Part shown: positions 1 to 16,514 of the stretch, piece after piece
Layout of the letters: every line of letters starts with the position of its first letter
How positions within the stretch are numbered: the first letter of the stretch is position 1
Origin: a virus
Taxonomy: Duplodnaviria; Heunggongvirae; Uroviricota; Caudoviricetes
Virus record (IMG/VR): IMGVR_UViG_2681813234_000010
Coordinates: 1-16,514 of that record
DNA length: 16,514 nucleotides
Strand: one strand, 5' to 3'
Made by a program: the position numbers and the translations under genes
The notes under the pieces: generated by a model
Seen by the model: the letters and a program-made list of their open reading frames with translations, nothing else
What the model was told of the DNA's origin: nothing
Database searches by the model: none

Positions 1-1236
1 TTGGGTGAACATAAACGTTACAATGACGAGGTTATTCATAATGTCTATCCGAAAGTCATAGATGATGATTTGTTTCTCACAGCTAATCGCATGATGGATC
101 GTGTGATGTTGGAGAAGAATAAACCAGCAGAAGACCTGTTACTTGAATCTGATGTGGTGCAAGAGATCTTTCAGCTATATGAAAGTGGGCTTGGCTCAGG
201 TGCTATCGTTAAGCGTTTGCCGAAAGGGTGGAGTACTGTAAATGTACTAAGGGTTTTACGTGACAAAAATGTAGTAACGCAGAAGATTATCGATAACTTA
301 ACTTTTGAGCGTGTGAATCAAAAGTTGTCAATGAATGGTGTAGCCAATCGCATTCGGAAGGATATAACTATTGCACAAGATGATTACATAACTAACTTAT
401 TCCCGAAGATCCTTAAGTGCGGTTATTGTGGTGGTAATGTTGCGATTCACTATAATCATGTTAGAACGAAATATGTGATTTGTCGAAATCGAGAAGAAAG
501 GAAGATCTGTGATGCAAAATCCATACAGTATATTAGAATTGAAAAAAACATACTCAAATGCGTGAAGAATGTAGATTTTCAAAAATTAATGATAGAAAGT
601 ACTGGCAGTGAAACTTCAGTGCTGGATGGTCTGCATGAAGAGCTATCATCATTACGCAGAGAAGAAAATAGTTATAGCGATAAAATAAATGAAAGAAAAT
701 TAGCAGGTAAAAGAGTAGGTATACATCTCAATGATGGGTTAACGGAGGTGCAGGACAGGATTGAAGAAATAGAAAAAGAAATTATCAATGCTCAAACTGT
801 AAGAGAGATACCTAAATTTGATTTTGATATGGATGAAGTACTTGATCCAATGAACATAGAGCTACGAGCGAAAGTGCGAAAACAGCTTAGGTTAGTACTT
901 AAAGCAGTGAAATACTGGATGTTCGATAAGCGTATTTTTATCCAATTGGAATACTTCAATGATGTACTTTCACACATGCTTGTAATTGATAATAAACGTG
1001 GCGGTGGAGATGTAATATATGAAATGTCTATTGAAGAAAGAAAGGGTGAACGAATCTATACAGTTCATGAAAATGGTCATGCAGTTTTCATTGCATCAGT
1101 AACTATCGGCACAGATATATGGTCATTAGCTTTAAGCCGCACACGTACAATTGATACCATTGGCAATTACCTAAGCCTCCTTGCTCGTGAAGGTTTTGAG
1201 ATCTTTGTGAACGAAGATCAAATTGATTGGTTTTAG
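1..1236 (+). CDS. int: Large serine recombinase (phage integrase), C-terminal ~410 codons; the 5' end lies upstream of the window
   Basis: Frame is open from base 1 to TAG at 1234-1236. The translation shows the tail of a recombinase domain, then a four-Cys zinc-ribbon (KCGYCGG ... CRNREERKICD) and a long charged, coiled-coil-like segment. That order is typical of large serine integrases. The catalytic resolvase domain is not in the window. Confidence 0.75.
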   Translation: MGEHKRYNDEVIHNVYPKVIDDDLFLTANRMMDRVMLEKNKPAEDLLLESDVVQEIFQLYESGLGSGAIVKRLPKGWSTVNVLRVLRDKNVVTQKIIDNLTFERVNQKLSMNGVANRIRKDITIAQDDYITNLFPKILKCGYCGGNVAIHYNHVRTKYVICRNREERKICDAKSIQYIRIEKNILKCVKNVDFQKLMIESTGSETSVLDGLHEELSSLRREENSYSDKINERKLAGKRVGIHLNDGLTEVQDRIEEIEKEIINAQTVREIPKFDFDMDEVLDPMNIELRAKVRKQLRLVLKAVKYWMFDKRIFIQLEYFNDVLSHMLVIDNKRGGGDVIYEMSIEERKGERIYTVHENGHAVFIASVTIGTDIWSLALSRTRTIDTIGNYLSLLAREGFEIFVNEDQIDWF

Positions 1237-1316
1237 TATTGTGAGAGTACCTTACTTTCAATAAGTATGAAAATTCTTTGGAGAACGTAGTTTTTACGTT
1301 TTAAACTTTATTTTCA

Positions 1317-1347
1317 CCTCGCAGGAGCGATTCTGCGAGGTTTTTCC
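1317..1347 (+). terminator. Rho-independent terminator downstream of the integrase gene
   Basis: Perfect 8-bp stem CCTCGCAG (1317-1324) / CTGCGAGG (1333-1340) with an 8-nt loop, immediately followed by TTTTT (1341-1345). Confidence 0.6.
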
Positions 1348-1465
1348 ATGTATGGTAATGCAATGAGGTGAGGCGTGGCTTGGGGGGGCGTATAGAGCGT
1401 TACAGGAAGGATTTGCGTTAAGTGTTAGTTTGATGTGCATATCTGAGTATATTTTCCTATTATCT

Positions 1466-1494
1466 TTGACCAGTCCTCGGGAATAATATATAAT
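1466..1494 (+). promoter_or_regulatory. Sigma70-like promoter (TTGACC, 17-bp spacer, TATAAT)
   Basis: -35 TTGACC at 1466-1471 and a consensus -10 TATAAT at 1489-1494 with a 17-bp spacer, about 90 bp upstream of the ORF starting at 1584. Confidence 0.5.
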
Positions 1495-1583
1495 GGCTTC
1501 ACGCCCTTAATAAAGGCTAGGCAGACAAAAGAGATATATAAATCTTTTCGCTACTGCCGATATCAAGTAGGAGCAAATCCAAA

Positions 1584-1940
1584 ATGACACTCAAACATAA
1601 TGAAACACATATTTATTATTCCAATGATTGTGCCGTAGAACAACAAGATAAAGAAATCTGGATCGACCAGAATTTAGTATATAGCTGCTGTAAAGGCGAT
1701 GAAGTAGAGTATACAGAAGGTAATAAGTCGGACTCTCCATTCTATGGTCAAGAGGCTTTACAAACTATGTATTATACTGACCGTGGAAATGTTCAGTATA
1801 ATAATGAAGATGGGAGTTTTTACTTTCGCCTTGATGATGGGAATATGAATACATACATAGATGGACAACTCCAGATTGATGATCCTAACGGTGACTATGT
1901 AGAATTCATTGAGTTCGCAAATAGTGTAATGTCTAAGTAA
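1584..1940 (+). CDS. Hypothetical small, strongly acidic protein (118 aa)
   Basis: ATG at 1584 preceded by AGGAG (1567-1571); ends at TAA 1938-1940. By manual count about 23 Asp/Glu versus 7 Lys/Arg. No recognisable family motif. Confidence 0.55.
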   Translation: MTLKHNETHIYYSNDCAVEQQDKEIWIDQNLVYSCCKGDEVEYTEGNKSDSPFYGQEALQTMYYTDRGNVQYNNEDGSFYFRLDDGNMNTYIDGQLQIDDPNGDYVEFIEFANSVMSK

Positions 1941-1953
1941 GAAAATTTATAAA

Positions 1954-1971
1954 CGAAGGTGCTAACCTTCG
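1954..1971 (+). terminator. Weak hairpin after the 1584-1940 ORF (possible terminator)
   Basis: 7-bp stem CGAAGGT (1954-1960) / ACCTTCG (1965-1971) with a 4-nt loop. No U-tract follows, so terminator function is doubtful. Confidence 0.25.
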
Positions 1972-2040
1972 ACGGTCATCATATATGACCGATTTTAAGT
2001 GAGATACCATAAATACTCCTATAACAGATAGGAGATATTT

Positions 2041-2214
2041 ATGAATTGGATATACAAAATAATCTTTGAAATCATTGCTACGGCAATCTATATGTTCGTA
2101 CTATTTCCATGTTGGATAGTACTGTGCATCTTTTTTATGTTATTAACAGTATTAGCACTACCTTTGAAAATTCCAACCATAAATAAAATGGTTATCAGGT
2201 TTTTGGAACGATAA
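2041..2214 (+). CDS. Small hydrophobic membrane protein (57 aa); not in the supplied ORF track
   Basis: ATG at 2041 preceded by AGGAG (2030-2034) with a 6-nt spacer; TAA at 2212-2214. The translation MNWIYKIIFEIIATAIYMFVLFPCWIVLCIFFMLLTVLALPLKIPTINKMVIRFLER is almost entirely hydrophobic, consistent with 1-2 transmembrane helices. Confidence 0.4.
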   Translation: MNWIYKIIFEIIATAIYMFVLFPCWIVLCIFFMLLTVLALPLKIPTINKMVIRFLER

Positions 2215-2232
2215 AAAATAACATGGTATAAT
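2203..2232 (+). promoter_or_regulatory. Putative extended -10 promoter upstream of the small ribbon-helix-helix-like ORF
   Basis: TG at 2224-2225 followed by TATAAT at 2227-2232; weak -35-like TTGGAA at 2203-2208. Confidence 0.3.
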
Positions 2233-2352
2233 CCATATTATGGTGATCACTACCTCAACGTGATAATTATAATTCCACATCAAAAAGTAATCCCCAACAT
2301 GGGGATCTTTTTGCGTTGAGAAAAAATGGAAAATGTTAAACAAAGGAATGTT

Positions 2353-2505
2353 ATGAAAGAAAAGAAAACTATTAGTGTTGGGGTGAGATTAAGTCCTACA
2401 CAAGAAGAAATACTAAAATCACTTATAGTGTGTGGTAAGGCTACAACGATGAGTTCAGCCATTCAGTATCTGATACAGCAATATGGGATTTTAGATAGTA
2501 AGTAA
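2353..2505 (+). CDS. Small ribbon-helix-helix (CopG/Arc-like) DNA-binding protein (50 aa); not in the supplied ORF track
   Basis: ATG at 2353 with AGGA 5 nt upstream; TAA at 2503-2505. The translation MKEKKTISVGVRLSPTQEEILKSLIVCGKATTMSSAIQYLIQQYGILDSK fits the ribbon-helix-helix pattern: an N-terminal beta-strand (ISVGVRLS) followed by two short helices. Confidence 0.45.
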   Translation: MKEKKTISVGVRLSPTQEEILKSLIVCGKATTMSSAIQYLIQQYGILDSK

Positions 2506-2512
2506 GGGTTTG

Positions 2513-2560
2513 GTACTTTCACTTTAGAAAGGTACTAACAGTACTTCAGGATGAAGTACT
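2513..2560 (+). repeat. Cluster of four GTACT motifs plus a duplicated AGGATGAA just upstream of the HNH/AP2 gene
   Basis: GTACT at 2513, 2532, 2541 and 2556; AGGATGAA occurs twice (about 2549 and 2570). Likely a regulatory binding array or leader. Confidence 0.3.
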
Positions 2561-2578
2561 TAGTTTCAAGGATGAAAT

Positions 2579-3079
2579 ATGAAAAAGGAAAAAAGAAATG
2601 ACCTAAAGGGTCAGGAATTACCACATGTAAAAGAAGCACTACGAGTATGGAATAACTTTCACTCAAGAGTGCGTAATAACATCAATTATAGTACTGTTAC
2701 CATCTGCGATGACTGGTATCGGTTTAGTAATTTTTATTATTGGTATGTTGAAAATGTTGTTGATGGTTGGCATTTAGATAAAGACATATTAGGAGGTAAT
2801 GAGTACAGCCCAAGTAACTGCATCTTTGTACCGAGAGAAGTAAATCAATTGTTCCGTAAAGCACCAACGTCATTATCAACCGGTGTTGTCGTTAATCATA
2901 AGGGCTATCAAGCACAAGCAACATTTGATAAGAAAGTACATAAGTTTGGGACATACCCAACGATAGAAGAAGCTCATGCTGCTTATGTTATTGGGCGTAA
3001 ATCATATATCTATAAACTATCGCAGAAGTATAAAGCATATCCAAAACTTAGTGCGGTACTATTACAAAAATCAAAATAA
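2579..3079 (+). CDS. HNH-type endonuclease-like protein with a C-terminal AP2-like DNA-binding domain
   Basis: ATG at 2579 with AAGGA 6 nt upstream. Residues WHLDKDILGGNEYSPSNCIFVPREVN match an HNH_3-style H...N...N motif. The downstream GYQAQATFDKKVHKFGTYPTIEEAHAAY resembles an AP2 domain, a pairing common in phage homing-endonuclease-like proteins. Confidence 0.55.
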   Translation: MKKEKRNDLKGQELPHVKEALRVWNNFHSRVRNNINYSTVTICDDWYRFSNFYYWYVENVVDGWHLDKDILGGNEYSPSNCIFVPREVNQLFRKAPTSLSTGVVVNHKGYQAQATFDKKVHKFGTYPTIEEAHAAYVIGRKSYIYKLSQKYKAYPKLSAVLLQKSK

Positions 3080-3144
3080 CGAAATGGCCTGAGTACTGGA
3101 AATACTACAGGTCAATATTAACATCTATCATATGGGTATTTATT

Positions 3145-3669
3145 ATGACAAAAAAGAAAGAGCCGCATGAAATAAAGAAACGTGGACGAAAACCAAAAGA
3201 ACACGATAATGCAGAATTACAAGATCATTTAAGGGGAGTACGCCATCTTAATCAACTTACAGATGAAGTACGTAGAGTAATATCAAACTCTGTTAAAAGT
3301 TACTTTGAAAAGAACAATAAACGTAAGACTTTCTCAAACAAGAATATGCTACTTCTGGTTACATCGACTCGATACATCACAGATGAAGCGATAAAGAACA
3401 ATATCGAGTACTTTGATGCCTTCACACTCAATGAGTACGGCGATTCCTCAGTACGAGATTATAAGATGGTCACGATTGCTATATGTGAGGGTCTGAATGC
3501 AATTCTAAGTAGTGGTAAGCCAGTAAGAAGTGATACACCAGAGGGATCACAGTACTTAACTGGTGAAGAAGCATATCAACTACGTATGGCTTTAGATGGT
3601 GGCTGTACTAAGGCAGACCTACTAAAGGTTATAGCTACAATTTATCCCGAATTAAGACATTCTAAGTAG
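3145..3669 (+). CDS. Hypothetical protein with a basic AT-hook-like N-terminus; possible DNA-binding regulator
   Basis: ORF of 174 aa. The N-terminus has KKRGRKPKE (AT-hook-like). The C-terminal LTGEEAYQLRMALDGGCTKADLLKVIATIY loosely resembles a helix-turn-helix of the sigma region-4 type. Function not established. Confidence 0.5.
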   Translation: MTKKKEPHEIKKRGRKPKEHDNAELQDHLRGVRHLNQLTDEVRRVISNSVKSYFEKNNKRKTFSNKNMLLLVTSTRYITDEAIKNNIEYFDAFTLNEYGDSSVRDYKMVTIAICEGLNAILSSGKPVRSDTPEGSQYLTGEEAYQLRMALDGGCTKADLLKVIATIYPELRHSK

Positions 3670-4122
3670 TGTTTTAATAACGGTTCAAATGTCGTAATTA
3701 AGGTTAAATGGGGTTTTTATGGGGTTGATTAGTGCTGCTTGCACTAGATATAGTATCTAAAATGAGTTAAAAAACACTGTATATGGGTTGTCCCGAATTT
3801 CGACACCATAATTAGAAATTATTAAGACCTCTTGTACTACGTCCAAATCGGTCTTTGAGTGCCTACACTCCCTGCGGTCGTATAGTCACTGAAAAACAAA
3901 TTAAACCGATCCTTGCGTTTTTTCTCGCTAGTACTCGAAAAACACGCAGGGGATTTACTCGCTTTCGCTCAGACAGGTAACAGTACTGACTAAACTATTG
4001 GGGTCGGCCTATGGCCTAAAGTTCGCTTCGCTCTTTTTGAAGTATCTACGCGGGCTAAGCCCTTGTTGGGGTTATCGGGCTGTTTAAGCCCTTACTGAAG
4101 TCATCAAATTATCTAACGACAC

Positions 4123-4246
4123 GAAGCAGTACTATCAATTGATTACTTCAAATGAGTTACTAAGTGAGCAGTCGTCTCACTTGCAATACTTATGATCTAT
4201 ATAAATGAAATCTGCAAGTGAGACTCCGGAGAAGTAGTACTATCAA
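4123..4246. repeat. Two 16-bp direct repeats (15/16 identical) bracketing a palindromic site
   Basis: GAAGCAGTACTATCAA at 4123-4138 and GAAGTAGTACTATCAA at 4231-4246. An extra AAGTGAG half-site copy sits at 4162-4168. Confidence 0.6.
4174..4224. repeat. 51-bp site: perfect 12-bp inverted repeat with a 27-bp AT-rich spacer (candidate attP, origin or operator)
   Basis: GTCTCACTTGCA (4174-4185) and its exact reverse complement TGCAAGTGAGAC (4213-4224). The spacer ATACTTATGATCTATATAAATGAAATC contains a GATC and a TATA-like run. Confidence 0.6.
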
Positions 4247-4403
4247 GTCACATATATTTGAGTACTGAATGATTTAGTTAGTCACAGTTGAAATAATTAA
4301 TATATAAAGGTCTACTTATAAATTCTACCGTGACAACCATCTACTATTTCAATCCAGGCCATTATGACTGGGTTTACGGGAAGCGTGAATAAAACTGTCT
4401 CAG

Positions 4404-5138
4404 TCAACTCAATAAAATTTCCATACTTGTGGGTGAAAACATACGATAGCTGATAATGTCACCTACATTGAAATTTGTTTGGAAAAAACTTCTAAGATCT
4501 GTTCCTCCCATGATTCTAGGTACTTTATTAGTGTTTGCCGTTCTGTTAATGATTGCAGTGAGGCTTGTATTGGTGCTGGAGTTAGTTATTTTTATTCTTG
4601 CACCATCTTCTCCAAACTCATGACTGGCAGCCACGGTAACGTTGAAAAATCCTCTTTGCCAATATGTATTAGCCATTCTGAAATTGTAAGTCGGGCTTGA
4701 TTTCTCTGAAGTGACAATTTCTATGTAATCTGTCGTGATTATCTTTTCCTGATAACCATTCCACTCAGGCTGTAGTACTCTAATTATGTCATCTTCTAAT
4801 GCAGCAGCTAGGTTTAAGTGAAATTGACCATAGTGCATTAATCCATTATCGGGTAAAACAAAAATGTCTACCGCTTCATTGTTTTTTAGATGCCTAATAA
4901 TATTCGCGTTGTTTTTTATATTTGTTGATTGAGTAGGGCCTGGCATAGAATAATGATACATTCTACGTTTAAGTAAACGAGTAGTTTTGCCTACATATTT
5001 TACCTGACCATCACAAATGAACGCATAAAGATTATTTTTGACATCTGAGTGAGAAGGTTCAAGTGTAAATTGTAGTTTTTCGCCATTGAGTTCCCAAAAG
5101 CCAATTTTAATAAATCCAATTTCAAGTAATCTATTCAT
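4404..5138 (-). CDS. GIY-YIG nuclease-domain protein with an unrecognised ~110-aa C-terminal domain
   Basis: ORF of 244 aa. Residues LYAFICDGQVKYVGKTTRLLKRRMYHY match the GIY...YIG core with the conserved Arg. Downstream, AAALEDDIIRVLQPEWN matches the conserved Glu and Asn region (compare UvrC ALLLEHNYIKLYQPRYN). The start ATG overlaps the stop of the upstream gene (ATGAATAG on the minus strand). Confidence 0.65.
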   Translation of the reverse strand: MNRLLEIGFIKIGFWELNGEKLQFTLEPSHSDVKNNLYAFICDGQVKYVGKTTRLLKRRMYHYSMPGPTQSTNIKNNANIIRHLKNNEAVDIFVLPDNGLMHYGQFHLNLAAALEDDIIRVLQPEWNGYQEKIITTDYIEIVTSEKSSPTYNFRMANTYWQRGFFNVTVAASHEFGEDGARIKITNSSTNTSLTAIINRTANTNKVPRIMGGTDLRSFFQTNFNVGDIISYRMFSPTSMEILLS

Positions 5139-5877
5139 GTATGACCTTCTTTCGAACTATGAATTTGTCAGTGGGGTAATTATTTGAATAGGTAGAAATA
5201 ATAAACGCTGAAACTTTCCGGTGTGTCTCTGTAACCTGATTCTTAAACTCTAAAAATTCAGCAATAGTTAAATCTTTTGCCTGTCGGTCTGCGTGTATCA
5301 GTGAGTCAACTTCAAAATATGAAGAAAGAAATAAGTTGTATATATTCCCATATTCCCGATTAGTGTCCTTAAGGATATTAATGATAGAGCAACTATAGTT
5401 ACTTAATTCAAAACCATTTCTTGGTATTGTATTTAAACTGTTAATTACTGAATAGGAGAGGTTAGCGAACTCATCCATTAAATTATCTAACTTGTGAACC
5501 TCATTTCTTAGTGATTCGTTGATGGCACAATTGTTATTTAATACGCTGATCGATTGTTTGCCCACTGACCAATATAAATTTCTCAAATGGTGGCTGGCAG
5601 AATTAACTTTTGTTAAATTAGTATAAATCGATTCTTCGATAACATTATGAACCACATCATATTGCTTTTGTGCTAACCATTCAGGTGCTTTTTTATACGC
5701 AGCAATCGCTATACCTAAAGTACCAATTGTAGCTAATGAACTCAACCAATCACTTACGCTTCCCCATTCAAAGCCATTAGAATCAGAAAATAGTACTTTA
5801 ATTAAAGCTAATATCGCTACCCATAGAAGTACTATGACGGTAGCAACTAATAATTTGTTCCATCCTTCAACTTTCAC
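5131..5877 (-). CDS. Membrane protein with two N-terminal transmembrane helices and a ~180-aa soluble domain
   Basis: ORF of 248 aa with a probable GTG start at 5877. Hydrophobic segments LLVATVIVLLWVAILALIKVLF and WLSSLATIGTLGIAIAAY. Its stop overlaps the start of the GIY-YIG gene by 8 nt, implying an operon. Confidence 0.55.
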   Translation of the reverse strand: MKVEGWNKLLVATVIVLLWVAILALIKVLFSDSNGFEWGSVSDWLSSLATIGTLGIAIAAYKKAPEWLAQKQYDVVHNVIEESIYTNLTKVNSASHHLRNLYWSVGKQSISVLNNNCAINESLRNEVHKLDNLMDEFANLSYSVINSLNTIPRNGFELSNYSCSIINILKDTNREYGNIYNLFLSSYFEVDSLIHADRQAKDLTIAEFLEFKNQVTETHRKVSAFIISTYSNNYPTDKFIVRKKVIHE

Positions 5878-6049
5878 TTTCTTAACCCGTAGAATGGTTC
5901 ATGGATGAAAAATTTTACCATTTGCAGTTATGTTTCGTAAATGATCATCGTAGAGTGAAAATTTAACTTAAGTGGAAGTTGCAACTCCATTTGGTGGAGT
6001 TGTACTGGTTGAGATCACGATTTCTTTGAAAAAAACGGGGCTGGTTGCT

Positions 6050-6076
6050 TTGAACTGGTTAACATAGTGGGATAAT
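6050..6076 (+). promoter_or_regulatory. Putative promoter for the HNH / PD-(D/E)xK cassette
   Basis: TTGAAC at 6050-6055, then TG (6068-6069) followed by GATAAT at 6071-6076 (extended -10-like). AGGAG at 6100-6104 precedes the ATG at 6110. Confidence 0.3.
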
Positions 6077-6109
6077 AAGCACCGAAGAAGAACTTCAGCA
6101 GGAGCAGGT

Positions 6110-6838
6110 ATGAACAGAAAGCAATTCATCCAGTCACACGGAGCTACTTGCAGTAACTGGACGTGGAGTTGGTCATTTGTTAACCATGAAAAGAAGATGG
6201 TCATCTTTGGGTCATGGGATGTTGAGAGTGAACAAGAGCGGTCTGTAATACTCCGGGAGAAATGGGAATACAACTCAAACAACAAAAAACAACCGGGATA
6301 CACCCAGGCACTGGAACACATCCGTTTAGCCCATGAAGGCTACGAACTTTACACCTTCAATATGGTTTTCGCAGAACACCCTGAGAATCCTGAAATTGCA
6401 GTAATCAAGGATTTTGAGCGTAAATTAAACAAGCGATATCTTCGTAAAGAAGGTGTTGTTTGGTATGCAGACTTCTTACCTAATCCATTCCCTGATGAAA
6501 TTCCTTCAGGAGAGAGTTTTGTTGAAGGTGCAAAGACTCAAGTAACAGTGAACTACTACGAACGCGATCCAAAGGCCCGACAAGCCTGCATCCAGCATCA
6601 CGGTACTACCTGTAAATGCTGTGGCTTCGATTTTGAGAAGGTCTATGGTACACATGGCCGTGGGTTCATTCATGTACATCACATCAAGCCGCTTCATACG
6701 ATTGGGGAAAACTATGTGGTCAATCCCGTAACAGATATGATCCCATTATGTCCAAACTGCCATGCAATGGTACATCACGGAAGCGAAGTACTTACAATTG
6801 CAGATTTGAAAAAGAAAATGACATTCTGGAGCGAGTAA
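6110..6838 (+). CDS. Zn-finger HNH endonuclease (McrA-like HNH) with an unrecognised ~150-aa N-terminal domain
   Basis: ORF of 242 aa with a good ribosome-binding site. The C-terminus CKCCGFDFEKVYGTHGRGFIHVHHIKPL...DMIPLCPNCHAMVHH is a classic HNH motif with CxxC...CxxCH zinc ligands, as in McrA-type enzymes. The N-terminal domain has no motif I can assign. Confidence 0.7.
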   Translation: MNRKQFIQSHGATCSNWTWSWSFVNHEKKMVIFGSWDVESEQERSVILREKWEYNSNNKKQPGYTQALEHIRLAHEGYELYTFNMVFAEHPENPEIAVIKDFERKLNKRYLRKEGVVWYADFLPNPFPDEIPSGESFVEGAKTQVTVNYYERDPKARQACIQHHGTTCKCCGFDFEKVYGTHGRGFIHVHHIKPLHTIGENYVVNPVTDMIPLCPNCHAMVHHGSEVLTIADLKKKMTFWSE

Positions 6839-7630
6839 ATGGATTTATCACAATTGAGCAACGTCGAATTGATGCAACTGAATCAGTTGACGCTTGATGA
6901 GTTAGAACGACGAGAGGTTATCAGAACCAGAAACAATCCTATCAGTGAGTACACTGAATGGCTGGTTGCGGATAAGATGCAGATGGTACTGGCTGCACCT
7001 AGTACTAAAGGGTATGACGCTACAACAACTGATGATCGAAAAATTCAGATTAAGTCTCGTAAGAATAATTTAAAAAACCAATCATTAATTCTTGGAATTA
7101 TCAGAAATTATGATCTGAACCAATTCGATGAACTCATTGCCGTAATATATAACCATGATTTCTCAATTCGTTATGCCATATCCATACCACATGAATTAGT
7201 GAAGGAATATGGTTTTTATAATGAGCATCAGAATGGGTACACTTTAAGAATAAGCAATTTATTACTTAATGATCCACGTGTAACAGATATCATTGAATTT
7301 ATTGACCCAGACACTGAACGTTCAAAGGAAGATATCACGGTGAAGCCAGATTCAAACACTATCCGGGATGTACAGACAATAGGAATGCAGACGTTTGTTG
7401 AGTACTATCAGTATGTTGAAAGTGGTATGAACACAACTGATCTTGTTGAAAAGATGGTAACTGACCATCCAGAATGGAAGGAAAGTACTGCAAGAACAAA
7501 GGCATCTTCAATGCGAAGAGTATTTAAGAATTGCGACAACGTTGAAGCACTAAAAATCATCTATAAGTCGGATCACCCAGCAATAACGGATGAGATTAAG
7601 AGTAAACTTATGACGCTTTGGGATAAATGA
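6839..7630 (+). CDS. Hypothetical protein with a PD-(D/E)xK-like (Hjc/restriction-endonuclease-fold) motif
   Basis: ATG at 6839 directly abuts the TAA of the HNH gene (TAAATG). EWLVADKMQMVLAAPSTKGYDATTTDDRKIQIKSRK fits an E ... D ... (E/Q)xK nuclease-core pattern. The fold assignment is tentative. Confidence 0.5.
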   Translation: MDLSQLSNVELMQLNQLTLDELERREVIRTRNNPISEYTEWLVADKMQMVLAAPSTKGYDATTTDDRKIQIKSRKNNLKNQSLILGIIRNYDLNQFDELIAVIYNHDFSIRYAISIPHELVKEYGFYNEHQNGYTLRISNLLLNDPRVTDIIEFIDPDTERSKEDITVKPDSNTIRDVQTIGMQTFVEYYQYVESGMNTTDLVEKMVTDHPEWKESTARTKASSMRRVFKNCDNVEALKIIYKSDHPAITDEIKSKLMTLWDK

Positions 7631-7729
7631 ACAAAGTTTTGGTTATATTTTTGACGCAAAAAGATATAATTGTAGTACTTCCACCTTTCGCATTTGGGTA
7701 GGTTTGTTTGGGCGATTGGTGGAAGTGTA

Positions 7730-8041
7730 TCAAAACGGTAATTCTCCCTGCTCACAAAACCATCCATCTTCATCATGCTGCTTATAGACAGAATTCTCAG
7801 TACTCAGATAATGCAAACCTTCCAGTACTGAACTTAGCGGCGTTTCCAGTATGAACACGAAGCAATCACGCTCAATCGTGCCTAACCAGTATGTACCTTG
7901 CTGGTTCTGGAAGAAAACGCGATCCCCATATGAAAACTCATCAAGACTGTATCCCCAATAGCAGACCTTAGCCCATTGGCCTAAATGCTCAAACTGCTGC
8001 ACCCCGCGTTTGATTGCCAGATCAAAACCGTTCTTGCCCAT
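7730..8041 (-). CDS. Hypothetical protein (103 aa) in a GC-richer island
   Basis: ORF with ATG at 8041. Its composition matches the surrounding GC-rich segment rather than the AT-rich backbone. No family motif recognised. Confidence 0.4.
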   Translation of the reverse strand: MGKNGFDLAIKRGVQQFEHLGQWAKVCYWGYSLDEFSYGDRVFFQNQQGTYWLGTIERDCFVFILETPLSSVLEGLHYLSTENSVYKQHDEDGWFCEQGELPF

Positions 8042-8146
8042 ACTATGCCTCTACATTAATACTGGTTATTCATACAGTATTGCATCACATTTCGCACAGA
8101 TCCAGCCATGAAAATACTTACCACTAAAAACGGTAGAAATGTAATT

Positions 8147-8216
8147 ATCGATCATTTTAATTTGATCAATGGTTAAAAATGATCAATTATCAATCAGTTA
8201 TGACAACTGAGAGATC
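8147..8216. promoter_or_regulatory. GATC-rich divergent intergenic region with a repeated TGATCAAT motif
   Basis: Four GATC sites in about 67 bp (8150, 8164, 8181, 8213). TGATCAAT occurs twice (8163-8170 and 8180-8187). The region lies between the divergently oriented 7730-8041 ORF and the EAL-like ORF. Confidence 0.4.
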
Positions 8217-8219
8217 AAC

Positions 8220-8729
8220 ATGAAACTCGAACATTGGGCAATTCCGATCACTTCATTGGACGGTATGTTACTCGGCGTAGAGCTGTAAACCCGTGTACTG
8301 ATAAACGGTTGCCAGGTACTGATGGGGGCAGGAAAAGAAAGTGAATATATCCGTCACGTGGTCTATCAGAACCAGTTAAGAATGATTCAGGGTAAAGCCG
8401 CATGGTTCAAAGAAAAGGGGCTGTTGTGCGTGCTCAGTACTGGCACAGGTACACGCTATGAAGATCTACCATTCATACGGTACATGGCTGCTGAACCACT
8501 GCTAACGAACGGTTACGACTTAGTTCGACTAAATAGACGGTTCACTGAAGAACACATAGAGCGGCTGATCTTCCCGGTACTCATCAATAACATCATGCAG
8601 TACTGCGACAAGGTGATCGTACAAGTCAGCAGCAATCGAAATCACAGGATTTTACGAGAGTCGGGGGTATGGGCAGTACAGGGAGAGTACAGGCCAATCC
8701 GCTTTGAACAATGCGAACAACTTCTATAG
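8220..8729 (+). pseudogene. EAL-like (possibly YdiV-type degenerate EAL) ORF interrupted by a single in-frame TAA
   Basis: ATG at 8220 opens MKLEHWAIPITSLDGMLLGVEL, then TAA at 8286-8288, and the same frame continues open to 8729 (170 codons in total). The N-terminal xPIxxxxGxxxGVEL and C-terminal WAVQGEY patterns resemble EAL-domain ends. The family assignment is tentative. Confidence 0.35.
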
Positions 8730-8739
8730 GGATATAACA

Positions 8740-9012
8740 ATGAAAATACTAATCGTCATGTTGGTAGTACTGCTCACAGGCTGCGGCAGCGTACATCACT
8801 CATTCATGGATAAAGCCTTTGTCGGCAACGTTGATAACAAGGCTACAATAGTACTGTTCGACGCTGGCACACGAAACGGGGTGAAGTACTACCGGCCTCA
8901 GTTCCAGAGTGATTGTGGCCGCACCTACAATCCGATTTACCAGGTGGACAATGGCAGTACTACATGCCATATACGAGAGGAAAGAATTAAAAAAATGCAT
9001 CAATATAGATAA
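8740..9012 (+). CDS. Small lipoprotein (90 aa)
   Basis: ATG at 8740 with AGGGA 8 nt upstream. The N-terminus MKILIVMLVVLLTGCGS has a hydrophobic signal peptide and the lipobox L-T-G-C. It starts 11 nt after the EAL-like ORF stop. Confidence 0.55.
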   Translation: MKILIVMLVVLLTGCGSVHHSFMDKAFVGNVDNKATIVLFDAGTRNGVKYYRPQFQSDCGRTYNPIYQVDNGSTTCHIREERIKKMHQYR

Positions 9013-9092
9013 TAAACAAAAATCAAAGAGATAGAATTATTAAATTATTAAGTGTATGTGGCATGATGAAAAATTAAATAATATATAATACC

Positions 9093-9122
9093 CTCATGCT
9101 GTTATTGATAAAACAGCATGAG
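9093..9122. terminator. Bidirectional hairpin terminator between convergent genes
   Basis: Perfect 11-bp stem CTCATGCTGTT (9093-9103) / AACAGCATGAG (9112-9122) with an 8-nt loop and A/T-rich flanks on both sides. It sits between the lipoprotein gene (+) and the DUF3800 gene (-). Confidence 0.55.
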
Positions 9123-9132
9123 AATATATATT

Positions 9133-10287
9133 TCAACGTAGCATGGCTAATGTTCTGGAAATTCTTATTATATCCTTCTCAATATCATCTAAAACAGGAG
9201 TTGAGTTTCTGCTTCGCTCTGCAATTTCTTGCAAAATATATCTATTTAAATGGTTGTTAACATTTTTAGGGTCAAGGTTTTCTGGTGTGGGAACAACACA
9301 GCACTGCCAATAAAAAATCTCATCTTCAAAATGATTTAGCCATTTAGAATGATATTTTTCTTTCGATTTTTTCTTGTTAAGGACATAAATGCTAGCCGCA
9401 GCTACCACATCCGCAATTTGTATACCATGCGTGACTTTAGAATCAGAAAGAATCATTGGCTCAGATAGCTTAAATGTGATCGGGATTTTTTTATCATGAA
9501 AAGTCTCGAACACAATCTCATCATTGCCTATCATCTCATTGAATGAGTCCTGATGAGTAATTAATGGTTTTGAGCTGTCGCATATAGCTCTCAATGTACC
9601 AAACTTACTACTCATATCGCACAGGAGATTATAAAGAGAAGTCGTTGTCAAATCTAATAACCACTTATCAATCCCAGTACCCTCAAGGCCTTCATATTCT
9701 TCTTCAATTATAGAGATGTTATTCTTGGCGAAATCATGAATGTCCATCATAATTTCAGAATTTTTAGAACCAACAACTGGTTCGATAAAACTATTAACCA
9801 ATATTTTACCTCGTGAAAAATCTTCAAATCGCGAATGTAATAGTTCTGAATATTCATCCTTAGCTATTAAAGAAAAATACATTATATTTGAGATGAATAG
9901 GTGAAATTTAAGGTTGTAAAAAATTGAGCTTTTAGCTGCTAATACTGGCTCAAAAATATATTCGAAGAATTTTCCTGAGAGGGCATATTTTTTTTCGTTT
10001 ACAACCACACGCATACGACCACGGAAATGATTAAGTATTTCATCTACGGCTGGTTGAAATCTCTTGCTATTTACGAGAGTGCTACCTTTTAGCTCTTCGG
10101 CTGCGATCGAGTACTTGTTTATTATATAATCAACAAACTGTTTACTTTCCTCATCATCAGTCACGACTGCTGCGTAACTAAAAAAAGGCTGATCTTTTGA
10201 AAGTAAGTTATTACCAGTGAATCCTGATTCATCGAAATATACATTCTTTACCAATTTGGTCATTCCTTTATGAGCTACAATGTGCAT
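9133..10287 (-). CDS. DUF3800-family protein
   Basis: The N-terminal VYFDESGFTG and C-terminal GIQIADVVAAA match the two conserved DUF3800 signature motifs. The start is uncertain: ATG at 10287, ATG at 10263 or TTG at 10254. None has an ideal ribosome-binding site. Confidence 0.6.
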   Translation of the reverse strand: MHIVAHKGMTKLVKNVYFDESGFTGNNLLSKDQPFFSYAAVVTDDEESKQFVDYIINKYSIAAEELKGSTLVNSKRFQPAVDEILNHFRGRMRVVVNEKKYALSGKFFEYIFEPVLAAKSSIFYNLKFHLFISNIMYFSLIAKDEYSELLHSRFEDFSRGKILVNSFIEPVVGSKNSEIMMDIHDFAKNNISIIEEEYEGLEGTGIDKWLLDLTTTSLYNLLCDMSSKFGTLRAICDSSKPLITHQDSFNEMIGNDEIVFETFHDKKIPITFKLSEPMILSDSKVTHGIQIADVVAAASIYVLNKKKSKEKYHSKWLNHFEDEIFYWQCCVVPTPENLDPKNVNNHLNRYILQEIAERSRNSTPVLDDIEKDIIRISRTLAMLR

Positions 10288-10466
10288 GTGCTATTAATAT
10301 AACATTGTAATAATGCTAATGTAAAATAGAATGTAAGTATTTTTAAGCAAGCTAATTAAGTTAAATTACTAATTAAGGTACTCCGGCAGCCCAGCTTAGA
10401 ACGCGAGTTTTCGGCACCGGATTCTTTAAGTTATGTGTGAAGTTTAGATAGCTTCCCGCACCGCAC

Positions 10467-11030
10467 TTAGCAAAGTACAACACCTATTTCATTTAACGCA
10501 CAATCGCAATGACGGTTTGTCGGACATTCGCATAATTTGAATACTGCATAAGATCCTTTAAGGGTATCGGTTACATACTTGTCCATTTCTTCAACTACAG
10601 ATGATGAGCAATATAAATGAAAACCAACACAGAAAGAATTTCGCATCGGATACTTACATTCTTGTATAGAGTTGAGTTTCAAATGGTCTGCTTGCAATCC
10701 TCTTTTTAAGGCAGATGAACGCTTAGTACATTTCAGCTCAATAAAGATATAGTCTTCAAAAAGGGTATCTTTTTCTCTCATTATTATATCGATTTTTGAG
10801 AGCTTGCTTGCAGGGAAATTATTAGGGTCAAGAAAAGCTGTAACTTCACGTTTAACTTCATATTTTCTTTTTTTGTTAAGGAAGTGCTCAAATTCAATTT
10901 GTAGCCATTTTTCCCAATCATTAGTTTCATTACTGACGAAGGAATACAGACGCCTCTTTATATCTTCATTCTTTAGGAAGCTATTCAGTAACTTTACCAG
11001 TAAAGAAAAATCATTGTTGCGGTCTGACAT
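10467..11030 (-). CDS. Hypothetical Cys-rich protein with a possible PD-(D/E)xK-like core
   Basis: ORF of 187 aa. KIDIIMREKDTLFEDYIFIELKCTK fits a D ... ExK pattern. The C-terminus contains a Cys/His cluster (CVGFHLYC ... CEC ... HCDC), suggesting metal binding. Confidence 0.5.
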   Translation of the reverse strand: MSDRNNDFSLLVKLLNSFLKNEDIKRRLYSFVSNETNDWEKWLQIEFEHFLNKKRKYEVKREVTAFLDPNNFPASKLSKIDIIMREKDTLFEDYIFIELKCTKRSSALKRGLQADHLKLNSIQECKYPMRNSFCVGFHLYCSSSVVEEMDKYVTDTLKGSYAVFKLCECPTNRHCDCALNEIGVVLC

Positions 11031-11044
11031 AGTGATCTCAATAA

Positions 11045-13412
<2,368 letters not shown>

Positions 13413-13415
13413 TAA

Positions 13416-16514
<3,099 letters not shown>

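Follow-up and report, generated by a model that had tools for sequence, protein, structure and literature searches.

The stretch of DNA analysed here (the window) is 16,514 nt long and comprises positions 1 to 16,514 of IMG/VR virus record IMGVR_UViG_2681813234_000010 (Caudoviricetes). Downstream of a gene for a large serine recombinase lie two genes of fewer than 60 codons: ORF57, which encodes a hydrophobic peptide of 57 aa, and ORF50, which encodes a 50-aa protein of probable ribbon-helix-helix (RHH) fold. A first-pass annotation had placed both ORFs within 2041–2505, each with a plausible ribosome-binding site, and we find both there; it had also proposed that they might form a small regulatory or toxin-antitoxin (TA)-like pair. 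We somewhat favour the view that the region is a conserved control junction beside the integrase gene of serine-recombinase prophages, in which the peptide gene would end the integrase-side unit and the RHH gene would head an operon gated by a terminator. The regulatory signals between and ahead of the two ORFs, which the first-pass annotation had not described, carry most of the information at the locus. The features of the junction are as follows:

2008–2043, + strand: hairpin of 15 bp that buries the Shine-Dalgarno (S-D) sequence and the AUG (2041–2043) of ORF57; its anti-S-D arm is CTCCTAT at 2016–2022, and it includes the invariant ATAAATA at 2009–2015
2041–2214, + strand: ORF57, from ATG to TAA, a 57-aa hydrophobic, presumed membrane peptide, MNWIYKIIFEIIATAIYMFVLFPCWIVLCIFFMLLTVLALPLKIPTINKMVIRFLER, assigned from substitution rates, 33 clusters of relatives and hydropathy
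2203–2232, + strand: predicted sigma-70 extended −10 promoter, TTGGAA, 18 nt, TGGTATAAT (the latter at 2224–2232), with 10 of 12 matches plus TG
2233–2289, + strand: 5′ part of the leader, with a 30-nt insert hairpin at about 2237–2273, a second TATAAT at 2268–2273 and the box TTCCACATC at 2273–2281
2290–2312, + strand: predicted intrinsic terminator of the leader, ATCCCCA-aca-TGGGGAT followed by CTTTTT, with a folding free energy (ΔG) of −9.8; it ends 46 nt before the RHH ATG
2313–2352, + strand: post-terminator leader, purine-rich, with 10-nt periodic TG(A/G)(G/A)AAAA repeats and then the conserved GTTAAACAAAGGAATGTT, which holds the ORF50 S-D
2353–2505, + strand: ORF50, from ATG to TAA, a 50-aa protein of probable RHH fold, MKEKKTISVGVRLSPTQEEILKSLIVCGKATTMSSAIQYLIQQYGILDSK (WP_000660106.1)

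We conclude from sequence conservation that ORF57 and ORF50 are both genuine protein-coding genes, since their frames are conserved across genera, the ratio of non-synonymous to synonymous substitution (dN/dS) is well below 1, indels keep the frame and the S-D sequences are conserved. The S-D of ORF57 is AGGAG (2030–2034), 6 nt ahead of the ATG; that of ORF50 is AAGGA (2343–2347), 5 nt ahead of the ATG. Pairwise Nei-Gojobori estimates gave dN/dS values of 0.22–0.54 for ORF57 at dS 0.06–1.0. For ORF50, the values were 0.09–0.54 over the computable pairs and 0.09–0.24 for the majority of diverged pairs, with dS mostly saturated; one pair with saturated dS gave no defined ratio, and one near-identical pair gave zero. 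Indels within the ORF57 family that keep the frame include a 12-nt deletion in Citrobacter koseri and a duplication of VLIE in P0024. Word-indexed searches found relatives of ORF57 in 9 clusters and of ORF50 in 12, all from Enterobacteriaceae; a profile search extended the ORF57 family to 33 clusters, including Enterobacter, and an exhaustive profile search extended the ORF50 family to 52 representative clusters at 50% identity, with lengths of 46–72 aa. Both families occur in E. coli, Cedecea, Citrobacter, Enterobacter and viral contigs. The first-pass annotation had made its proposal depend on conservation in related phages, and in the relatives examined both ORFs are indeed kept across genera under purifying selection. 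Exact copies of the 57-aa sequence occur in 136 indexed blocks of the assembly collection. RefSeq PGAP leaves ORF57 unannotated and lists ORF50 as a hypothetical protein. Some automatic annotations start ORF50 at the ATG at 2326, and this 59-aa reading is indexed in 802 blocks of the assembly collection. We rejected it because that ATG is missing in related lineages. We also rejected N-terminally extended readings of ORF57 homologs (80–89 aa), as the extension crosses the start-site hairpin and its ATG is GTG in L023.

The ORF57 product is as hydrophobic as the first-pass annotation had described, with a grand average of hydropathy (GRAVY) of 1.50. Residues ~3–42 form a continuous hydrophobic stretch that is broken only at an invariant LFP(C)W, and the C-terminal tail is basic and conserved. 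Invariant residues of the family are W3, A13, T14, Y17, VLFP, WIVL, P41, K43, P45 and N48. The peptide is presumably inserted into the membrane, and because of its 40-residue hydrophobic length and central proline we infer a two-helix hairpin in the inner membrane with the basic tail in the cytoplasm. An AlphaFold2 model, which we regard as uninformative, is one long helix with a predicted local distance difference test (pLDDT) score of 81. Searches of ORF57 against Pfam, PHROGs, NCBIfam and PADLOC, including their TA and defence models, gave no significant match. A holin-like role, one of the functions first suggested for the peptide, finds no support in its surroundings: lysis genes were not found nearby, the neighbours being the recombinase gene, a 118-aa gene, the RHH gene and an HNH/AP2-like gene. 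A role as an exclusion peptide, also suggested, is possible.

ORF50 most probably has an RHH fold, in agreement with the first description of its product as RHH-like. An AlphaFold2 model built on the family alignment (pLDDT 83.7) has residues 1–14 extended, followed by helices at 15–26 and 33–48; the model is of a monomer, in which the strand cannot register as a sheet. The top Foldseek matches in the PDB were nearly all RHH proteins (a TCP domain, MazE-mt1, NikR, ParD 8c24 and PrpA), with E-values of 0.4–5 that are non-significant, as expected for a domain of 50 residues. ParD 8c24 superimposes on the model with a template modelling (TM) score of 0.68 and a root-mean-square deviation of 1.6 Å. 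A profile of 48 family sequences matched the NikR RHH domain in the PDB at E = 0.0045, ParD at 0.43 and MazE9 at 2; a PDB profile search with only six close RHH sequences returned nothing useful. Among the 48 family members, six matched Pfam RHH_1 (best 0.002), three NikA-like and two RHH_7, all under the gathering scores, and ORF50 alone had no significant match in Pfam, PHROGs, NCBIfam or PADLOC, TA and defence models included. ORF50 thus belongs to a family that has no annotation and is not covered by Pfam. The consensus of the 48 sequences is MKExKxxxVxVRLxxxQxxxLxKLIxxGKAKTxSxAIQYLINxxxILG. The glycine turn with an S/T/N cap between helices A and B is present, as C-G-K-A-T-T in the window and as GKAKT.S.AIQYLIN in the family. 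ORF50 is a bare RHH domain, all 50 residues being used by the fold; it has no C-terminal extension, and the extra length of its relatives is N-terminal. In its length of ~50 aa and its predicted strand-helix-turn-helix topology, ORF50 resembles Arc and Mnt of phage P22, plasmid CopG and the N-terminal domain of NikR, and it shares with RHH regulators the G-x-x-(T/S/N) turn before helix B (GKATT; GKAKT.S in the family). It differs from them in that no member of its family reaches a curated Pfam threshold and in that a leader with an intrinsic terminator precedes the gene. Arc stands at the start of the P22 ant operon, a place comparable to that of ORF50 at the head of a phage operon.

The start site of ORF57 is predicted to be occluded in its own mRNA. 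The hairpin that contains the S-D and AUG has a ΔG of −15.7 kcal/mol (z-score −7.1), and 0 of 200 shuffled sequences folded equally well. An S-D-occluding hairpin is present in 8 of the 8 ORF57-family lineages, with stem bases that differ between lineages: the stem variants next to the S-D are CUCCUAU:AUAGGAG, CUCCUGA:UUAGGAG and UCUCCUGUAUCU:AGAUACAGGAGG. The anti-S-D arm lies ~54 nt before the ATG in most lineages and 25 nt before it in the window. Given these different positions, the arms are not homologous, which suggests that occlusion of the S-D is itself under selection. We rejected the ATAAATA within the hairpin as the −10 element of an ORF57 promoter, since neither a suitable −35 nor a T at position −7 is present in any lineage.

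The 138 nt that separate ORF57 from ORF50 contain a promoter that is conserved and an intrinsic terminator whose stem covaries. The promoter overlaps the last codons of ORF57, and transcription is predicted to start near 2239. It is the only promoter that recurs at a homologous position in four related loci (L017, L018, L029 and L033), and its −35 element and spacing are kept where the region is non-coding (L029, L077 and L046/L051). In the distant L077, a promoter unit running from ATAAATA to TGGTATAAT is tandemly duplicated ~210–130 nt upstream of the RHH ATG. No minus-strand promoter recurs across L017, L018, L029 and L033. Neither a minus-strand promoter nor an antisense RNA was therefore retained; the scan of the window made a single minus-strand call (2266 to 2237), and this falls within a lineage-specific insert.

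The terminator lies 58 nt downstream of the −10 element and ~50 nt past the predicted transcription start, and this + strand terminator is the only terminator that recurs in the same four loci. To reach distant relatives, we searched IMG/VR with the back-translated AIQYLIN motif, which recovered 18 further family members; the leader statistics given below cover the 19 loci with enough upstream sequence. In 17 of the 19, a terminator ends 37–57 nt before the RHH ATG (16 within 45–57 nt). There are at least 14 different stems, with the loop motifs GCAAT and GTGACA recurring, and a covariance model built from close lineages detects the leader in distant ones. Compensatory changes were present at all seven pairs of the stem in the covariance-model alignment, which was fitted to the structure. 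Stem cells were paired in 87% of cases, as against 62% in shuffled alignments and 38–58% with slid partners, and the covariation score was 0.60 against 0.17 and was reached by 0 of 500 shuffles. Rfam 15 returned no match, either for the window (E ≤ 1) or, with gathering thresholds, for 11 related loci. A promoter-proximal terminator ahead of the first gene of the operon, within ~50–200 nt of the promoter, is thus present in the window and family-wide, as in the terminator switches of other prophages (IsrK, P4 CI and lambdoid PR′-tR′). The covariance model also detected extra leader-like copies in L056 (11898–11989), L065 (299–384), L061 (11–108), L059 (292–388) and L074 (4467–4543), and some viral contigs may carry more than one such element per genome.

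The leader from 2233 to 2316 folds at −22.8 kcal/mol (z-score −3.9). Its 30-nt insert is confined to the window and Cedecea lineages (L026). A 20-nt direct repeat (2229–2248 and 2288–2307, 75% identity) suggests that the insert arose by partial duplication of a segment that contains the TATAAT box and the terminator. We considered a sigma-dependent pause at the second TATAAT, of the kind associated with lambdoid Q, and dropped it because insertions of 0, 30 or ~140 nt separate the boxes between lineages.

A pyrimidine box, AA(A/T)CTCCTCCAA, precedes the terminator by 10–18 nt in ~16 of 19 lineages; the window has a degenerate version, TTCCACATC. We rejected the box as the S-D complement (GGAGGAG) of a minus-strand gene, as the ORFs there are 3–49 aa long and unconserved. 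Pairing of the box with the S-D of the RHH gene was not consistent (0.22, as against 0.18 in controls), and there was no covariation of the box with the ORF57 S-D. With the purine-rich stretch beyond its own terminator the box paired somewhat better than with those of other loci: cognate 5′ and 3′ flanks of the terminator gave −7.6 kcal/mol and non-cognate ones −6.3 kcal/mol (permutation fraction 0.003), a small effect among related loci. An 8-nt complementarity between 2292–2299 and 2376–2383 is absent from L017, and we took it to be due to chance.

The heptamer ATAAATA is 16-fold enriched in the module, where 28 of 29 copies are on the + strand, and it ranks top among 7-mers of equal composition. 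It is invariant ~33 nt before the ORF57 ATG; copies in the window lie at 2009–2015 and 2179–2185, and at 2036–2042 on the minus strand. In L042, L043 and L045, the peptide ORF ends at a TAG inside a longer form, ATAAATAG(A)TATGTA, which is nevertheless retained ahead of the RHH promoter, so ATAAATA is conserved as DNA or RNA and not only as codons. We consider it a candidate operator or promoter element.

The module belongs to an element that we identify as a prophage because a recombinase, both terminase subunits and a portal protein are encoded. The features that adjoin the junction are as follows:

1–1236: serine recombinase gene, the first ORF of the window, encoding the C-terminal 411 aa of a 644-aa protein
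between the recombinase gene and ORF57: gene for a 118-aa protein, function unassigned
1973–1991, + strand: predicted intrinsic terminator of the 118-aa gene, CGGTCAT-catat-ATGACCG then ATTTT, from a terminator scan (ΔG −8.9 kcal/mol, z-score −3.1)
2579–3079, + strand: gene for a 166-aa HNH_3/AP2-like protein (phrog_953, 1.5e-38), next in the rightward unit

After the recombinase gene, the order is the 118-aa gene, ORF57, ORF50, the 166-aa gene, a 174-aa gene, variable cargo with methyl-directed restriction-like genes among it, and then the genes for the small and large terminase subunits and the portal protein. We compared diverged loci from a second E. coli type, Cedecea, Citrobacter koseri, Enterobacter and metagenomic lineages. 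In every diverged lineage fetched, the order of recombinase, a 118/125/126-aa gene, peptide and RHH gene is kept, with an HNH or primase-helicase-like gene next. The slot of the 166-aa gene is occupied in relatives by an HNH_3/NUMOD4 protein or a primase-helicase-like protein; the RHH gene there precedes HNH_3-type or large SF2-helicase-like proteins, one of the latter with a primase-like N-terminus. Because genes of these types come next, the RHH gene appears to head an early or replication-type operon. A hydrophobic small ORF stands upstream of the leader in 17–18 of the 19 loci and belongs to at least three sequence families, with lengths of 26–61 aa. An exact-protein look-up covering many E. 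coli assemblies placed the element, with its large serine recombinase, beside yeaG (prkA) and yeaH in E. coli. Relatives of the element adjoin msyB, a HAD-hydrolase gene or a radical-SAM gene. The element is carried by only 2 of 5,426 complete RefSeq E. coli genomes. DNA similarity searches against deposited phages, in near and distant modes, gave no match to the window, a scan of GTDB representative genomes found no relative, and literature searches that linked yeaG or msyB to serine-integrase prophages turned up no relevant report of the element.

Putting these observations together, we propose that the region works as a control junction. ORF57 would be the last gene of the integrase-side unit, with a low, translationally throttled output in lysogens, and its product would probably have a membrane function, such as superinfection exclusion, or be harmful when over-made. 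ORF50 would open a rightward operon that runs into the HNH/AP2-like gene in the window and into primase-helicase-like genes in relatives, and its product would bind DNA as a dimeric regulator of the Cro/Arc type. Most transcripts would stop at the leader terminator to give a short RNA of ~75 nt, and read-through alone would yield the RHH protein and the downstream proteins, such that the terminator would gate the operon. The RHH protein would probably feed back on the ATAAATA-rich promoter region.

Exclusion of superinfecting phages has known precedents among small prophage membrane proteins, such as HK97 gp15 and lactococcal Sie2009. Genes for exclusion proteins lie between integrase and regulatory genes, bracketed by terminators, and the position of ORF57 is analogous. 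The exclusion protein Ltp of S. thermophilus is a surface lipoprotein (PMC3952083). ORF57 differs from exclusion proteins in having no homology to them, in being smaller (~55 aa) and in having its translation occluded, which would be unusual for an exclusion factor that is needed constitutively.

Several points weigh against this control-junction model. The transcription start, the short RNA and the read-through are all predictions, and the ATAAATA operator sites are candidates. Assignment of ORF50 to the RHH fold comes from a monomer model, fold matches with non-significant E-values (0.4–5) and profile matches below threshold. For ORF57, AlphaFold2 shows a single long helix, and the two-helix topology was derived only from the length of the peptide and the invariant proline of LFPxW. 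No promoter of its own was identified for ORF57, whose ATG follows a terminator by only 50 nt. The picture of separate units is not universal: L081 lacks a promoter that would separate the peptide gene from the terminator, so peptide, box, terminator and RHH gene are predicted to be co-transcribed there. Finally, a hydrophobic small ORF is tightly linked to the leader throughout the family, which suggests a functional coupling that the model leaves unexplained.

Alternatively, ORF57 could be a regulatory small ORF that works together with a riboregulator, much as kil/eta of P4 does with CI RNA and icd of P1 with C4 RNA, or as IsrK does in Gifsy-1. The short leader RNA, with its anti-S-D-like CUCCUCC box, would act in trans on read-through transcripts, on the ORF57 S-D or on both, and translation of the small ORF would be coupled to termination, setting the expression of the early operon (RHH and replication genes) as an RNA-based switch between immunity and induction. 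In the immunity region of P4 (kil/eta and CI RNA) and the immI regions of P1 and P7 (C4 RNA, icd and ant), termination in the leader silences an early or replication operon in the lysogen, and the ribosome-binding site of a small, potentially harmful ORF in the controlled region is masked by RNA pairing. Premature termination of the P4 early operon is described in PMC4825925. As a further parallel, relatives of the element have a primase-helicase-like gene after the RHH gene; the window differs from these phages in that the S-D is masked in cis, the order of elements is different, the terminator is intrinsic and there is no homology. At the Gifsy-1 isrK locus, transcripts from a prophage promoter either end at a Rho-independent terminator, giving a short RNA, or read through it, giving an mRNA for downstream small ORFs and regulators; RNA structure limits translation of the read-through form (PMC4825925). 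The window has the same predicted promoter-terminator layout and differs in having no sequence or Rfam similarity to isrK, an RHH gene rather than orf45/anrP downstream and a hydrophobic peptide gene upstream. Besides these precedents, the riboregulator is favoured by the strong conserved promoter and conserved terminator ahead of the first early gene, by the recurrence of the pyrimidine box, by the better pairing of cognate terminator flanks, by the retention of an upstream hydrophobic small ORF even where its sequence family changes, and by the predicted co-transcription in L081. However, no homology to the C4, IsrK or CI RNA families was found, Rfam was empty, no antiterminator gene was identified, the box in the window is degenerate, and the box neither covaries with the peptide S-D nor pairs consistently with that of the RHH gene. 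The flank-pairing effect is small and comes from phylogenetically related loci, and ORF57 is under selection at the amino-acid level, so it is not merely a leader ORF. We consider the riboregulator unlikely, if worth keeping in mind. By analogy with the systems above, the inter-ORF region might encode a previously undescribed riboregulator that forms the core of the module, with a constitutive promoter and a switch common to the serine-integrase prophage family; this too is a tentative proposition that we would not expect to hold.

ORF57 could instead be a type I-like, membrane-depolarising toxin silenced by mRNA structure and by an RNA antitoxin encoded in its vicinity. Like Hok, TisB, Ldr, Zor, Fst and GhoT, it is a hydrophobic peptide of ≤60 aa whose mRNA folds so as to hide the S-D, here together with the AUG in a conserved and very stable hairpin; it is located in a prophage, and a short RNA with an anti-S-D-like box is predicted directly downstream. 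However, we found no gene for an antisense or divergent RNA antitoxin: no minus-strand promoter recurs across lineages, Rfam was empty, and the sole candidate RNA is predicted on the same strand and has no specific or covarying complementarity. Known type I toxins and RNAs are not similar, and fixed synteny with the integrase and RHH genes is atypical of type I modules. We therefore regard this explanation as doubtful. The protein TA-like pair of the first-pass annotation, with ORF57 as toxin and ORF50 as RHH antitoxin and autorepressor, fares worse and is quite improbable. RHH domains are common in type II antitoxins (ParD, MazE-mt1 and PrpA), which are among the fold matches of ORF50, and all the ORF57-family lineages examined have the two genes side by side in conserved synteny. 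However, they do not form a compact bicistron, being separated by the 138-nt spacer with its promoter and terminator; ORF50 has no toxin-binding tail; and ORF57 is unlike any type II toxin. Moreover, the peptide changes family, shrinks to 26–27 aa, or is truncated or absent (L046, L051, L065 and L061) with the RHH gene intact, and the RHH gene stays linked instead to the downstream HNH or primase-helicase-like genes. The TA model fails for these reasons. We conclude that ORF57 and ORF50 are neighbours in a regulatory module and not toxin and antitoxin; of the original proposal, the two genes with their ribosome-binding sites, the hydrophobic peptide and the RHH-like protein are supported and the TA pair is not. 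A chance origin of one or both ORFs in AT-rich, non-coding intergenic DNA would fit their size of <60 aa, the absence of ORF57 from RefSeq annotation and the lack of a Pfam family for either, yet this can hardly be reconciled with cross-genus frames, dN/dS well below 1 with dS up to saturation, frame-keeping indels and conserved S-D sequences, and it is extremely unlikely.

The conserved leader with its terminator is the most interesting feature of the locus and goes beyond what the first-pass annotation had found. For annotation, the gain is two real families, one of membrane peptides (33 clusters) and one of minimal RHH proteins (52 clusters), neither of which is in Pfam. Together, the S-D-locking hairpin, the extended −10 promoter and the covarying terminator define a control junction that can be recognised in the serine-integrase prophages of Enterobacteriaceae. 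Switching close to the integrase bears on when defence-type cargo and early genes are expressed, and if the leader were a trans-acting RNA, it would be a new case of RNA-based prophage immunity.

Downstream of the RHH stop codon and ahead of the HNH/AP2-like gene, a perfect 9-bp inverted repeat, AGTACTTCA-gga-TGAAGTACT, lies at 2540–2560 (ΔG −9.5, z-score −3.3). A hairpin with a GTAC core is found at the matching place in L017, L018 and the distant L042, and the repeat could be a second conserved hairpin or operator. The single complete RefSeq genome with the full module is NZ_CP123310.1 (L016 and L038), in which the prophage is heavily degraded, with IS3, IS5 and group II intron insertions and a split large terminase gene. 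Further into the window, a variable cargo hotspot at 3669–6110 (the same interval in L001–L036) lies between the 174-aa gene and a 242-aa HNH gene, and its contents differ by strain: 8xMP, DUF3800, Tlde1, Hcp and DUF2971 proteins and IS3 elements. Beyond it, at 6110–7630, two neighbouring genes match the PADLOC models for methyl-directed restriction mREase_IV (4e-08) and mREase_II (1.3e-62).

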